Origin: Eledone cirrhosa
Lineage: Eukaryota
Reading direction: 5' to 3'
Assembly: GCA_964016885.1 (NCBI GenBank)
Contig: OZ024741.1
Location: 19,344,001 to 19,408,000 of the forward strand
DNA: 64,000 bases
Positions within the stretch are counted from its first letter, which is position 1; each line of letters begins with the position of its first letter. The position numbers and the translations under genes were made by a program. Shown in pieces: positions 13,304 through 48,303 of this stretch. The notes beneath the pieces were generated by a model. It did not search any database. It was not told the origin of the DNA and saw only the letters and a list, made by a program, of their open reading frames with translations.

Positions 13304-13747
13304 TAGTAATAATAATAAATGTGAAGACTAAAATAAGAAGAAGGTTCGATAAGGATAAAATGTATATAAATATATATATAAAAACCGTAGAGCAAATATT
13401 TATTAAAATAACAGATTAAAGTTTAAGCAAAGAATCGCTGCTTTCACCCTTAACAGGATCTTCTGAAACTAAAACAAAAACAATCTGTGGACGCAGAAGT
13501 AAATATTTCGAAAAACGTTGCAACCGAAGGAAAATAGGAAGACGATACAAGGATAATAAAGGAAGGATAAATGTGGAGCGATGAGAACAATTTCACGCAG
13601 AGATAAAACAAACAAATCACGTTTATGGTATAAATGGAGTCATTAGACCAATATTCTATTTAGGAAACCGAATGATTCTCAGGTCCGGAGTTTAGAATAA
13701 TGTAAATAAATTTGTTGAATGAAAATGACAGAGGTTATTAAAATCGT

Positions 13748-14354
13748 GGGCGCCAGCGATTCGGCGGAGGTTACAGGTCTTATCGGCCTATTCCTACTTT
13801 TTTCTATCAAGGAAGATTTCCCTAATGTAGGCGATGGCCTGTACCGCGATGACGGTCTTTCGACCATGATCAAGTGCGGTCCCCGCGCTTGCGACAGGTT
13901 TAGGAAAGAACTCACAGCTTTCTTTAAAGGTTTCAACCTCTCCATACAAATTGAGGCCAACCTTTCTGTTGTAAACTACAAATGTAAGGTCGACACACCC
14001 ACGTCTAGTAGGTCCTACATTGGGATAACCGCCAATAGAGTCAAGCAGCGTCTTTACATGCACACCCATTCTTTTCTTAACCCTTTAAGAAGGAACATGA
14101 CGTCACTTTCGGCTAATATCTGGAGTCTAAAAGACAACCACGCCCAATATAGGTTACACTGGGAGATCCTAGCTAAAACTAGATCGTATAACGGAAACAA
14201 AAGACCATGCGATCTTTGTGCCGCTGAAGCCCTGAAAATACTCTACGCCAATGATCTAATCTTAAACAAAAAATCTGAGGAAATTTCGGCTTGTAAACAC
14301 AAATTGCATAAAACTTTCCTGTATTACAGCCCCACATTATACCCTAACGGATAG
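13748..14354 (+). pseudogene. PLE RT core fragment fused in frame to GIY-YIG endonuclease
   Basis: GASDSAEVTGLIGLFLL..GLYRDDGL..VVNY joined directly to KCKV..SYIGIT..KQRLYMH..CDLCAAE..SACKHK. The thumb/linker present in the 3004-4730 relative is missing. Confidence 0.85.
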
Positions 14355-14588
14355 TACGGACAATACGCGGATAATATACGTCATGATGTGGTAGCTAAGT
14401 ATATTTTATGTTTATATCATTACTTATTTGTATAGGTAAGTATACCTTATCCGTATGTTCGTGCAGTTACGTGTATGTGTGTATATGTATATGTGTATAT
14501 ATCGGTTTGTGTATATATATATGTGTATATATATATATATATATATATATATATATATATATATATATATATATATATATATATATAT

Positions 14589-15360
14589 ACAATCAGTTGA
14601 AAAGGTAACACACCGGAGAGAGATATACAGTGCGCTATTAATAAAACAGGGAAAAAAACCCACCAGTGTATGGAATCTATAACCTATGAAAGGCAGACTA
14701 TAGACACGATAATTAAAAATATAAATTAAAGCGTAAATAAATACCTCTATAACTATATAACACACGTACAAATCCAAAGAGATGTTTCGCCAGTAATTTG
14801 TTGACAGAAATGGAATAACCTCGGTTCATCAGCGTGTGTAAGGCTATACATTTCAGACAACACTAAGAAAATTTTAAAAGTGACTGTCCAGCTACACGTT
14901 GGAGAGAGAAGTCACAGCGTGTTTAAGGGCAGTGAACCAGTGGCCTCTGAGGGATGAACTGCTAGAAAGGGCAGCCCAAAACCACTCAGAGAAGTGTGCT
15001 CAACCAAACAGAGAGATAGGAAAGACTGTTATAAGGAGCAAAATATCACGATAAATTAACCGAGCCATAGGCCCTCGCCATTCCCTGTAAATAATGTGCT
15101 CAAAGGAGAAGAAATCCTGAACTCTTTAAAATACAATATGTTGAAAAGGTAACACACCGGAGAGAGATATACAGTGCGCTATCAATAAAACAGGGAAAAA
15201 ACCACCAGTGTATGGAATCTATAACCTATGAAAGGCAGACTATAGACACGATAATTAAAAATATAAATTAAAGCGTAAATAAATACCTCTATAACTATAT
15301 AACGCACGTACTAATCCAAAGAGATGGCGAGGGCCTATGGCTCCGTTAATTTATCGTGAG
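14589..15360 (-). mobile_element. Non-autonomous HHR-bearing element (544-bp partial tandem) in (TA)n
   Basis: Direct repeat 14596-14785 / 15140-15326. 15324-15359 is an inverted copy of 15046-15081. No ORF. (TA)n on both sides. Confidence 0.8.
14760..14839 (-). ncRNA. Type I hammerhead ribozyme
   Basis: acacacg CTGATGA acc...tggc GAAA ca tctctttggatt tg TA cgtgtgt; 7-bp stem I, GUA site. Confidence 0.8.
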
Positions 15361-45400: not shown

Positions 45401-47185
45401 CTTAAAGTCTAAACTTATCTACGGAACAGGTTTGATTTTGAAATTTAAATGTGTCTAAACATCACGGCCTCTTGGCAATACAGTTCGTCTCCGTTGATTT
45501 ATTATTTTAAATCGATATGGACAAACTGTAGTATAATAATTAGTATACTTCAATCTGGCTAGATTTTTCTTTTGCAATATATATACAGATGTGTTGGTAT
45601 CTGTGTTTCATCACATACATATTAATTTATACACTGCTCAGGGGGTATTTTTCCTACTTCGAGCTGATTCCATTGTAAAAGAATTCATTACCTTAATAAT
45701 TTTAACTGCTCCTAGTTTGAGCTGCAAGCCGCCTCATATATGCAACTGTTATTTCTAGCAGTACGGTTATGAGACTAGTTAGATACTGTAAAGCCATGTG
45801 CGTCACGCAGTCTTTTAAATTATTTAGAAGTGAAGCATATCAATTTGTCTCTGGAGGTTTACTGAGGAGAGCGGGACATGATATTCCTACACTTATTTAA
45901 CTCGAAACATATTTGGATCTTAAAGTCTAAACTTATCTACGGAACAGGTTTGATTTTGAAATTTAAATGTGTCTAAACATCACGGCCTCTTGGCAATACA
46001 GTTCGTCTCCGTTGATTTATTATTTTAAATCGATATGGACAAACTGTAGTATAATAATTAGTATACTTCAATCTGGCTAGATTTTTCTTTTGCAATATAT
46101 ATACAGATGTGTTGGTATCTGTGTTTCATCACATACATATTAATTTATACACTGCTCAGGGGGTATTTTTCCTACTTCGAGCTGATTCCATTGTAAAAGA
46201 ATTCATTACCTTAATAATTTTAACTGCTCCTAGTTTGAGCTGCAAGCCGCCTCATATATGCAACTGTTATTTCTAGCAGTACGGTTATGAGACTAGTTAG
46301 ATACTGTAAAGCCATGTGCGTCACGCAGTCTTTTAAATTATTTAGAAGTGAAGCATATCAATTTGTCTCTGGAGGTTTACTGAGGAGAGCGGGACATGAT
46401 ATTCCTACACTTATTTAACTCGAAACATATTTGGATCTTAAAGTCTAAACTTATCTACGGAACAGGTTTGATTTTGAAATTTAAATGTGTCTAAACATCA
46501 CGGCCTCTTGGCAATACAGTTCGTCTCCGTTGATTTATTATTTTAAATCGATATGGACAAACTGTAGTATAATAATTAGTATACTTCAATTTGGCTAGAT
46601 TTTTCTTTTGCAATATATATACAGATGTGTTGGTATCTGTGTTTCATCACATACATATTAATTTATACACTGCTCAGGGGGTATATTTCCTACTTCGAGC
46701 TGATTCCATTGTAAAAGAATTCATTACCTTAATAATTTTAACTGCTCCTAGTTTGAGCTGCAAGCCGCCTCATATATGCGACTGTTATTTCTAGCAGTAC
46801 GGTTATGAGACTAGTTAGATACTGTAAAGCCATGTGCGTCACGCAGTCTTTTAAATTATTTAGAAGTGAAGCATATCAATTTGTCTCTGGAGGTTTACTG
46901 AGGAGAGCGGGACATGATATTCCTACACTTATTTAACTCGAAACATATTTGGATCTTAAAGTCTAAACTTATCTACGGAACAGGTTTGATTTTGAAATTT
47001 AAATGTGTCTAAACATCACGGCCTCTTGGCAATACAGTTCGTCTCCGTTGATTTATTATTTTAAATCGATATGGACAAACTGTAGTATAATAATTAGTAT
47101 ACTTCAATCTGGCTAGATTTTTCTTTTGCAATATATATACAGATGTGTTGGTATCTGTGTTTCATCACATACATATTAATTTATA
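42448..47185 (+). repeat. 518-bp tandem array (9.15 units), one hammerhead per unit; retrozyme-like
   Basis: Landmark ctggaggtttactgagg at 42743, 43261, 43779, 44297, 44815, 45333, 45851, 46369 and 46887 (exact 518 period). Only a few substitutions between units. Confidence 0.95.
42747..42826 (+). ncRNA. Type I hammerhead ribozyme, first of nine (every 518 bp)
   Basis: aggttta CTGAGGA gag...ctc GAAA c atatttggatcttaaa g TC taaactt; GUC at 42817-42819. Stem I extends as tctg/cgga past a bulge. Confidence 0.85.
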
Positions 47186-48055
47186 TATTTATATATATAT
47201 ATATATTCCAACGTAGAACACTTAACTCATGTGATGCTATTCATTTGCAGTGTCATTAATACATCTATCATAATAAAACTGTCGTTTTAACCGCAATGAT
47301 CTCTCATCTGCGATGTTTACACACATTTATTTGCTCTTTATTTCATCTGTTTTAGCAAGCAACTCTTATTTGTTGTCTTCAAAGTAAATTTGATGCTGTC
47401 GGGTACCATCAAACTGGAAAACCACCCAATAAACTGATATATTGCTCGGTTTCTACATGCATGTGTGTGTGTATATATATATATATATATATATATATAT
47501 ATATATATATATATATATATATATATATATATATATATATATAATATTATATATATATAATATATATATATAATATATATATAATATTATAATAAATGGA
47601 AAATATCTTTACAAAACCATATATATATATATATACATATAAGGATATCAATATATGTACATATATTATAAAGATGTATATCTATGCGACAAATCTCCTC
47701 AATCTTAGTCATCTGTATAATATGCTTTAGTATATATTTTTTATATCAATAATTCTCTCTTTCGCTCTCCACAGGTACTCGCGCGCGCGCGCGCACACAC
47801 ACATCTACACATTCACTAACACACACACACACACACACACATATATATATATATATATAGATTCCATAAATGTAAACTCCGTCACACCTAATCACCAAGA
47901 TTTCGCTGGGGATACCCTACTGACGTGAAGAGCTTTTGGTTTGCTTAAACCAGTTTATCACCGCAACGTTACAGCGTAACCTCCACGGATAAACACCCTT
48001 ATTATCTGCACTATATATATATATATATATATATATATATATATATATATATATA

Positions 48056-48303
48056 GTGCAGATAATAAATTTGAAGACTAAAATCTAAAGAGGGCTCGAT
48101 AAGGATAAATATATATCAAATATATAAGAACCGTAGAGCAAATATTTATTAAAATAACAGATTAAAGTTTAAGCAAAGAATCGCTGCTTTCACCCTTAAC
48201 GGGATCTTCTGAAACTAACAAAGTCAATCTGTCAGTTTCAGAAGATCCCGTTAAGGGTGAAAGCAGCGATTCTTTGCTTAAATTTTAATCTGTTATTTTA
48301 ATA
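48056..48303. mobile_element. Short fold-back of the variant-HHR PLE tail
   Basis: 48148-48216 is inverted at 48234-48302. (TA)n flanks. Confidence 0.85.

Follow-up and report, generated by a model that had tools for sequence, protein, structure and literature searches.

Background

Hammerhead ribozymes are near-universal in the clades of Penelope-like elements (PLEs) with a C-terminal endonuclease (EN), yet cleavage is dispensable in the sole in vitro system. Here we describe a PLE family in a 64,000-nucleotide (nt) stretch of Eledone cirrhosa DNA (contig OZ024741.1, positions 19,344,001 to 19,408,000; hereafter the window), whose hammerhead-shaped motif has A in place of U at core position 4 (A4) and a predicted CUU cleavage site.

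The closest described systems are the Hydra-clade PLEs with a C-terminal EN (Craig et al. 2021, PMC8557442). The marks of this clade, as given in section 11 of that paper, are RWK-like and DKT motifs, a CxCX5C linker, and CxxC and CxH motifs around the EN. The family in the window has the same set (RWR, DKT, CxCX5C, GIY-YIG, CxxC and CxH). It also shares the (TA)n flanks, the inverted 5' arms, the optional tail and, near the 3' end, a type I hammerhead on the sense strand, in which a U10.1-U11.1 mismatch and U at H17 are frequent in the clade. The Hydra hammerheads in file S2 of the paper all read ctgaNga with a GUH site, whereas the motif here has A4 and a CUH site; its stem III is longer and carries a 7-nt loop, and its stem I is extended and bulged. 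The motif of Hydra-1_oBim given there is a different, canonical one. The element here is further distinguished by a length of about 3.2 kb and a 749-nt intron in its pseudo-long terminal repeat (pLTR).

Natural departures from the hammerhead core have been described before. The U4C variant (Perreault et al. 2011, PMC3088659) also lies in the catalytic core at position 4; it is weak in vitro and sufficient in vivo, and a U-U at 10.1-11.1 was found to be tolerated. In the passages covered on natural core variants, U4C is the one position-4 variant to be named, and U4A is not mentioned. Other natural core variants are A6C (PMC7151607) and U3-A8 in Schistosoma PLEs (PMC4209133). Unlike the known variants, the U4A described here belongs to an actively amplified retroelement and is fixed across its roughly 20,000 copies. 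No natural fixed U4A was found in the literature searched, with figures and the survey of small PLE variants by Lunse et al. 2016 outside its scope. The parts covered of PMC7151607, PMC6765202, PMC11014351 and bioRxiv 10.64898/2026.07.22.740005 contain nothing on position 4, and titles and abstract starts revealed no publication on this motif in the source organism. PLE hammerheads and the Hydra clade are already known; what appears to be new is the fixed natural U4A variant.

Poseidon of the green anole (Frangieh et al. 2024, PMC11167929) has features that the present family appears to share: two internal starts of reverse transcription that give a short end and a tail, a hammerhead in the pLTR, and unprocessed RNA as template. 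It differs in its canonical core, in belonging to another clade, and in an open reading frame (ORF) that overlaps the hammerhead, whereas here the ATG lies about 156 nt behind the predicted cut. The dimer-dependent minimal PLE hammerheads (Cervera and de la Pena 2014) have an absent or short palindromic helix III, which the present motif does not.

Results and discussion

Structure of the motif in the window

All six copies in the window (Table 1) have the layout agttt-CAGAAGA-13 nt-GAAA-15 nt-TT-aaa(c/t)t and lie where the original prediction had placed them. A loose pattern for the motif has 8 matches in the window, six of them from this family, against 0.25 expected; 8 or more were seen in 0 of 100 shuffles. 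The six copies are the forward and inverted arms of three insertions and not six independent events. Stem II is just 3 bp long and is closed by a U10.1-U11.1 mismatch, and stem I is extended by 9-10 bp distal to a 7-8 nt 5' bulge; both features had been overlooked. Stem III consists of 4 bp plus A15.1-U16.1, with a 7-nt non-palindromic loop. In three of the six copies a substitution breaks a stem (stem II of 16411 and 40014, stem III of 38721), a pattern that decay following insertion would produce. The 48234 copy has lost the 5' arm of distal stem I at its junction. Between insertions 1 and 2 the upstream flanks are identical at 61/91 to 70/88 positions and the 54-nt motifs differ at one or two places. 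The earlier claim of an invariant A between diverged flanks holds for these two; insertion 3, a near-perfect fold-back, has almost no flank for comparison.

Fixation of A4 in the genome

In the source genome (3.0 Gb) exact 29-mers of the motif occur 19,559 times with A4 and 206 times with another base (A in 99.0% of 19,765). By eye, the first 100 listed of the 206 comprise 39 with T, 35 with G and 26 with C. Two sets of copies were chosen regardless of core sequence. A4 is present in 40 of 41 native young copies selected by EN match (four junction copies set aside) and in 28 of 29 old copies selected by upstream flank, the remaining one being deleted at the site. A4 and the CUU site are common to all four subfamilies examined. 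A family consensus of CTGAAGA elsewhere would have spoken against the fixation proposed at the outset; genome-wide, the consensus is A4.

Among 39 exact U4 29-mers inspected, 15 have fully native upstream sequence from mixed backgrounds, about 5 have a native distal stem, and the rest are junctions. A looser U4 pattern gave 1,134 matches, and all 20 loci inspected are junctions, 19 of them fold-backs. The U4 copies in these two samples are junction products or scattered point mutants, and no U4 subfamily was seen among them. U4 arises at inversion junctions because TTCAGAA is a quasi-palindrome whose flip yields the canonical core, and A4 may itself have originated by such a flip. About 1,000 inversion junctions genome-wide (for example L091-L110 and L295-L328) recreate canonical CUGAAGA in this way, usually without stem I. 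A ribozyme on the opposite strand was considered and rejected, CUGANGA being found on that strand only at junctions. Among the rows listed, there were no position-4 variants at 3% in contigs from four sequencing runs (kind unspecified, three organism labels), a result too weak to count.

A4 compared with the relatives

We drew 78 related loci from metagenomes, some of them duplicates of one family, of which 69 were testable. With position 4 left free, a hammerhead was found behind the ORF in 40 of the 69, and all 40 have U4; they include two Hydra-type elements (L334 and L367) with natural covariant U3-A8 cores. The stretch behind the ORF held no hammerhead in the other 29. A relaxed rescan of 38 other loci, with a descriptor that does find the motif of the family's copy L062, gave more canonical motifs and no credible A4 one. 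The distinct canonical motifs counted among the relatives number 54.

In a 32-row protein tree (midpoint root, relatives without named Hydra reference proteins) the three A4 rows form a clade (100/98). Its sisters are another protein and then the canonical-core element at 3004-4802 of the window. A covariance model built from 19 canonical relatives, whose stem alignment covaries strongly (0/500 shuffles), has 11 matches in the window at E<=2: five of canonical type and the six A4 copies, the latter at E 0.024-1.0. The U10.1-U11.1 mismatch and H17=U are common among clade relatives (the metagenomic loci; PMC8557442 file S2). Pair 15.2-16.2 is G-C in the A4 family and C-G in 19 of 19 aligned relatives. 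A4 is derived relative to the U4 of the clade, because all 40 related hammerheads have U4 and the canonical-only model recovers all six copies. Rfam gave no hammerhead match on a window copy and likewise none on four loci with canonical relatives, and is therefore uninformative here.

Conservation of the fold

Hand-made rules assigned 122 copies with native upstream sequence to the subfamilies Y1 (47), Y2 (15), O1 (27) and O2 (15), with 18 left out. The copies were extracted with fuzzy motif anchors, and O2 comes mostly from a pattern that fixes the core bases. The cleanest comparison is that of O1 with Y1, sets chosen by flank or protein: core and stems are identical at 56 of 56 positions and the flank at 88 of 137 columns (64%). 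The unfiltered O1 consensus, from flank-selected old copies, has the same motif. The four consensuses form two related pairs, and the tests on them treat columns as independent. Across them 54 of the 56 positions in core and stems do not vary, and a wobble pair is preserved by either of the two changes. In contrast, N7, loops and bulges vary at 12 of their 23 positions (Fisher p 1.7e-6), and substitutions are present in 66 of the 137 columns of the far flank (p 1.5e-10) and in 11 of the 38 adjacent ones within the nearest 40 nt (p 6.7e-4). C3, G5, A6, G8, A9, G12, A13, A14, A15.1-U16.1 and H17 are invariant in all four; N7, the sole free core position, varies, whereas the 12 fixed core positions do not. 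Pairing in type I order is found in 90.9% of 1,209 cells, compared with 26-51% when the alignment is slid (55 copies, 53 distinct, from the 122 plus three window copies).

Because core and stems are conserved while N7, loops and bulge change, the motif is, on sequence grounds, best read as a hammerhead variant under selection for its fold. Stems conserved no better than the flanks had been named as an argument against the original prediction; core and stems do exceed the flanks, while covariation in the family is marginal. The invariance of A4, on which that prediction leaned, is confirmed but is weak evidence alone, as 71 of the 137 flank columns are likewise invariant across subfamilies. Since a lone invariant site has about an even chance under flank rates, the data show A4 by itself to be tolerated, and selection on it cannot be shown.

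The parent element

From their sequence context, the six motifs belong to the 3' ends of a Hydra-clade PLE that is inserted three times, each time with two arms. The EN fragment of the window, used as a genome query, gave 150 scored matches at 86-100% identity. One copy, L062, holds a 713-codon frame for a reverse transcriptase (RT) joined to the EN (YRDD, YIG..Y). The motif lies about 1 kb downstream on the same strand, behind the C-terminal GIY-YIG, which bears out the earlier description of a PLE tail. The L062 protein carries all protein marks of the Hydra clade, GIY-YIG included, with RWR at 37, DKT at 115, CxCX5C at 564, CxxC at 662 and CxH at 690. Its ORF has 454 relatives at E<=1e-30, and in full length it has no match in Pfam or the PDB. 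The other traits of the clade are present as well: (TA)n insertion, 5' truncation, inverted arms and a tail.

Insertions end at two places. The short end (25 of 45) lies 23 nt behind the predicted scissile bond and about 10 nt past the point where stem I ends. The long end (20 of 45) lies 114 nt behind the bond, and its tail is the 5' untranslated region (UTR), stopping 42 nt before the ATG. These two classes match the pair of internal sites at which reverse transcription starts in the anole PLE. Introns are usually described as being kept in PLE copies. Here the GT-AG intron of the pLTR (L062 6285-7033) is precisely spliced out of many genomic copies: a search gave 453 matches (control 236), and about 51 among the first 100 listed are of this kind (counted by eye; L141-L160). 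Seven more of the same 100 junctions use a minor acceptor 4 nt upstream of the main one. The spliced form retains the motif whole.

Function of the motif

U4 caps the U-turn of the hammerhead core, and CUU is a slow cleavage triplet. The motif has a PLE position and homology to the hammerheads of the clade, its A4 is derived and fixed, and its variation is limited to N7, loops and bulge. The best reading, at about even odds, is that this type I hammerhead in the 3' pLTR would still be used as a ribozyme, slow and perhaps assisted by protein. A slow but used ribozyme is favoured over a dead handle, a splicing constraint or a relic because the other catalytic positions are kept while N7 drifts. 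Poor cleavage has been reported for metazoan PLE hammerheads (PMC4209133), and the anole PLE hammerhead cleaves only with protein (PMC11167929).

The lineage has swapped U4 for A and has a CUU site, while all other core bases and the stems are kept. On this reading transcription of a tandem copy would begin in the upstream pLTR, the intron of which is spliced in some cases, and the RT-EN protein would bind near the motif and nick (TA)n. Reverse transcription would start at one of the two internal sites. Because these lie behind the scissile bond, the template would have to be intact (or re-ligated) across it, and fast cutting before reverse transcription would be harmful because tail-spanning insertions need an intact template. 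A4 would weaken the U-turn, slow cutting and keep templates whole. Unit-length RNA, its 5' end about 156 nt before the ATG, would be released when cutting happens now and then or is triggered by protein.

Several results weigh against this reading. At the predicted cut, 5' ends are no more frequent than at the core: 775 junction matches at the cut, about 76% of them true (about 590), compare with 723 at the core, counted with a stricter filter and about 81% true (about 585), and a further 1,000 or so fold-backs there. This breakpoint proxy is rough, its true fractions being taken from the first 100 listed rows without a positive control. Low activity is reported for single mutants in the CUGA turn of a type III hammerhead, where the C3-G8 swap was the one pairwise change to give rescue (PMC9901934), and catalytic mutants of the anole PLE have no effect on insertion in vitro (PMC11167929). 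Covariation within the family amounts to 19 cells (9/500 and 26/500 shuffles), 12 of them at one terminal pair that is lost in young copies. That pair (U-A in 18 copies, C-G in 11, unpaired in 22) is the sole clear compensatory change. The hammerhead fold lies 3-8 kcal/mol above the predicted minimum, and the window copies fold no better than shuffles. Conservation above that of the far flank also extends to the sequence bordering the motif (27/38 and 11/14 columns).

It is possible, if doubtful, that the ribozyme is effectively dead and that its three-way fold is kept as a handle by which RT-EN positions internal initiation just downstream. Two simultaneous departures from the clade consensus, A4 and the G15.2-C16.2 pair, would fit such a handle, as would the missing spike of 5' ends at the cut, the closeness of the short end to stem I, and the dispensability of cleavage in vitro in the anole PLE (PMC11167929). 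A non-autonomous derivative of the family, which joins two or three modules, one of them without stem I, points the same way. However, binding alone need not keep the general base and acid, and none of the 12 fixed core positions changed, whereas N7 and about half of the flank columns did. The 5' part of the anole hammerhead, moreover, can be truncated without loss of insertion (PMC11167929). A functional core variant and a cleavage-dead fold serving as an RT signal were the two alternatives first put forward, and they are still the leading two.

We judge it unlikely that the family holds either an efficient hammerhead without U4 or a ribozyme throttled to keep the RT template whole. A purine at position 4 could be accommodated by the flipped 15.2-16.2 pair, by the extended bulged stem I, or by the protein of the element. 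A throttled ribozyme would, if true, explain the tens of thousands of copies and make PLE hammerheads tuned timers rather than simple cutters. The family is a natural experiment, with at least 19,559 copies despite a predicted crippling core change and with the rest of the fold conserved. Searches in which CUGANGA is fixed miss whole families, and this bears on claims of PLE clades without hammerheads.

An explanation by splicing is improbable. On that view C3-A4-G5 serves as a 3' splice acceptor, which would account for the fixation of A4, and its product, an mRNA without the fold, would be translated and not retrotransposed. The 5' side of the motif reads as branch point, pyrimidine tract (the bulge) and AG in all four subfamilies, and the intron of D. 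virilis Penelope ends at the 5' end of helix I (PMC4209133). The intron of the element, however, uses an acceptor about 105 nt upstream in the spliced copies noted above (about 51 of the first 100 listed non-native post-donor junctions). None of the same 100 lies at the core, and the core CAG is rejected as main acceptor for the known donor. Another AG sits 6 nt earlier. Among the first 100 of the 723 core junctions there is no recurring exon-like junction into the core; the exception is a single derivative family, and microhomology accounts for its join equally well.

Very improbable, and already largely refuted, is a functionless relic whose A4 is a founder mutation carried along with a successful master element: the even chance of one invariant site, the near-identity of young copies by descent and the comparison of just four, pairwise related, consensuses would allow it, but core and stems are conserved where loops, N7 and bulge are not, which holds for the whole motif even if A4 is merely tolerated.

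Other features of the window and the family

The tail on the inverted arm of insertion 1 is identical to the 5' UTR of the element. Other repeats are nested within insertion 1, between 14475 and 16095, and a short repeat is nested in the inverted arm of insertion 2.

Table 1. Positions in the window of the three insertions, their hammerhead-shaped motifs and further hammerheads
Feature	Position	Strand	Remark
Hammerhead-shaped motif, A4 core, CUU site	13420..13470	-	inverted 5' arm, insertion 1
Hammerhead-shaped motif, A4 core	16411..16461	+	one stem II pair broken; insertion 1 forward
Extended stem I of 16411 copy	16393-16401 with 16462-16470	+	paired
Hammerhead-shaped motif, A4 core	38721..38771	-	one stem III pair broken; insertion 2
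Hammerhead-shaped motif, A4 core	40014..40064	+	one stem II pair broken; insertion 2
Extended stem I of 40014 copy	39998-40006 with 40065-40073	+	paired
Hammerhead-shaped motif, A4 core	48166..48216	-	insertion 3
Hammerhead-shaped motif, A4 core	48234..48284	+	G-U wobble in stem I; insertion 3
Insertion 1, inverted arm	13306..13745	-	ends at long end (tail) before (TA)n
Insertion 1, internally deleted RT fragment, GIY-YIG endonuclease and 3' UTR start	13747..14475	+	
Insertion 1, intron donor	GT at 14436	+	donor use demonstrated in other copies
Insertion 1, forward 3' end (pLTR)	16095..16485	+	short end, then (TA)n
Insertion 2, inverted arm	38611..39675	-	long end
Insertion 2, forward 3' end	39677..40088	+	
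Insertion 2, intron acceptor	AG at 39915-39916	+	acceptor use demonstrated in other copies
Insertion 3, very short fold-back	48062..48308		arms 48062-48232 (-), long end, and 48228-48308 (+), short end
Canonical-core hammerhead	6560-6614	-	
Canonical-core hammerhead	34331-34385	-	
Canonical-core hammerhead	51281-51325	-	
Canonical-core hammerhead	52151-52195	-	
Canonical-core hammerhead	53408-53452	+	
Canonical-core hammerhead	50369-50410	-	
Canonical-core hammerhead	50577-50618	+	
Canonical-core hammerhead	37252-37275	+	

The non-autonomous derivative family (L191-L204) combines two or three hammerhead-like modules, the inner one without stem I, with an unrelated spacer, and makes up 15 of the first 100 listed core-junction rows. 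A short interspersed repeat at 16520-16700 and about 38900-39087 lies next to or nested in the PLE arms.

The window holds a second Hydra-type PLE at 3004-4802(-), with a canonical-core hammerhead at 1959-2005(-), about 1 kb behind its endonuclease. At least four further families of canonical-core hammerheads are present; the family found at 6560 and 34331 has the same U-U closure and, likewise, a long non-palindromic stem III. Nine units of 518 bp, each bearing a hammerhead-like motif with a canonical core, form a retrozyme-like tandem array at 42754-46943; a PLE-like ORF at 41552-42349(-) adjoins it. A LINE-type reverse transcriptase frame of 672 codons lies at 28006-30024(-), and a long tandem repeat of 45-bp type, open in several frames, at 54700-57000.

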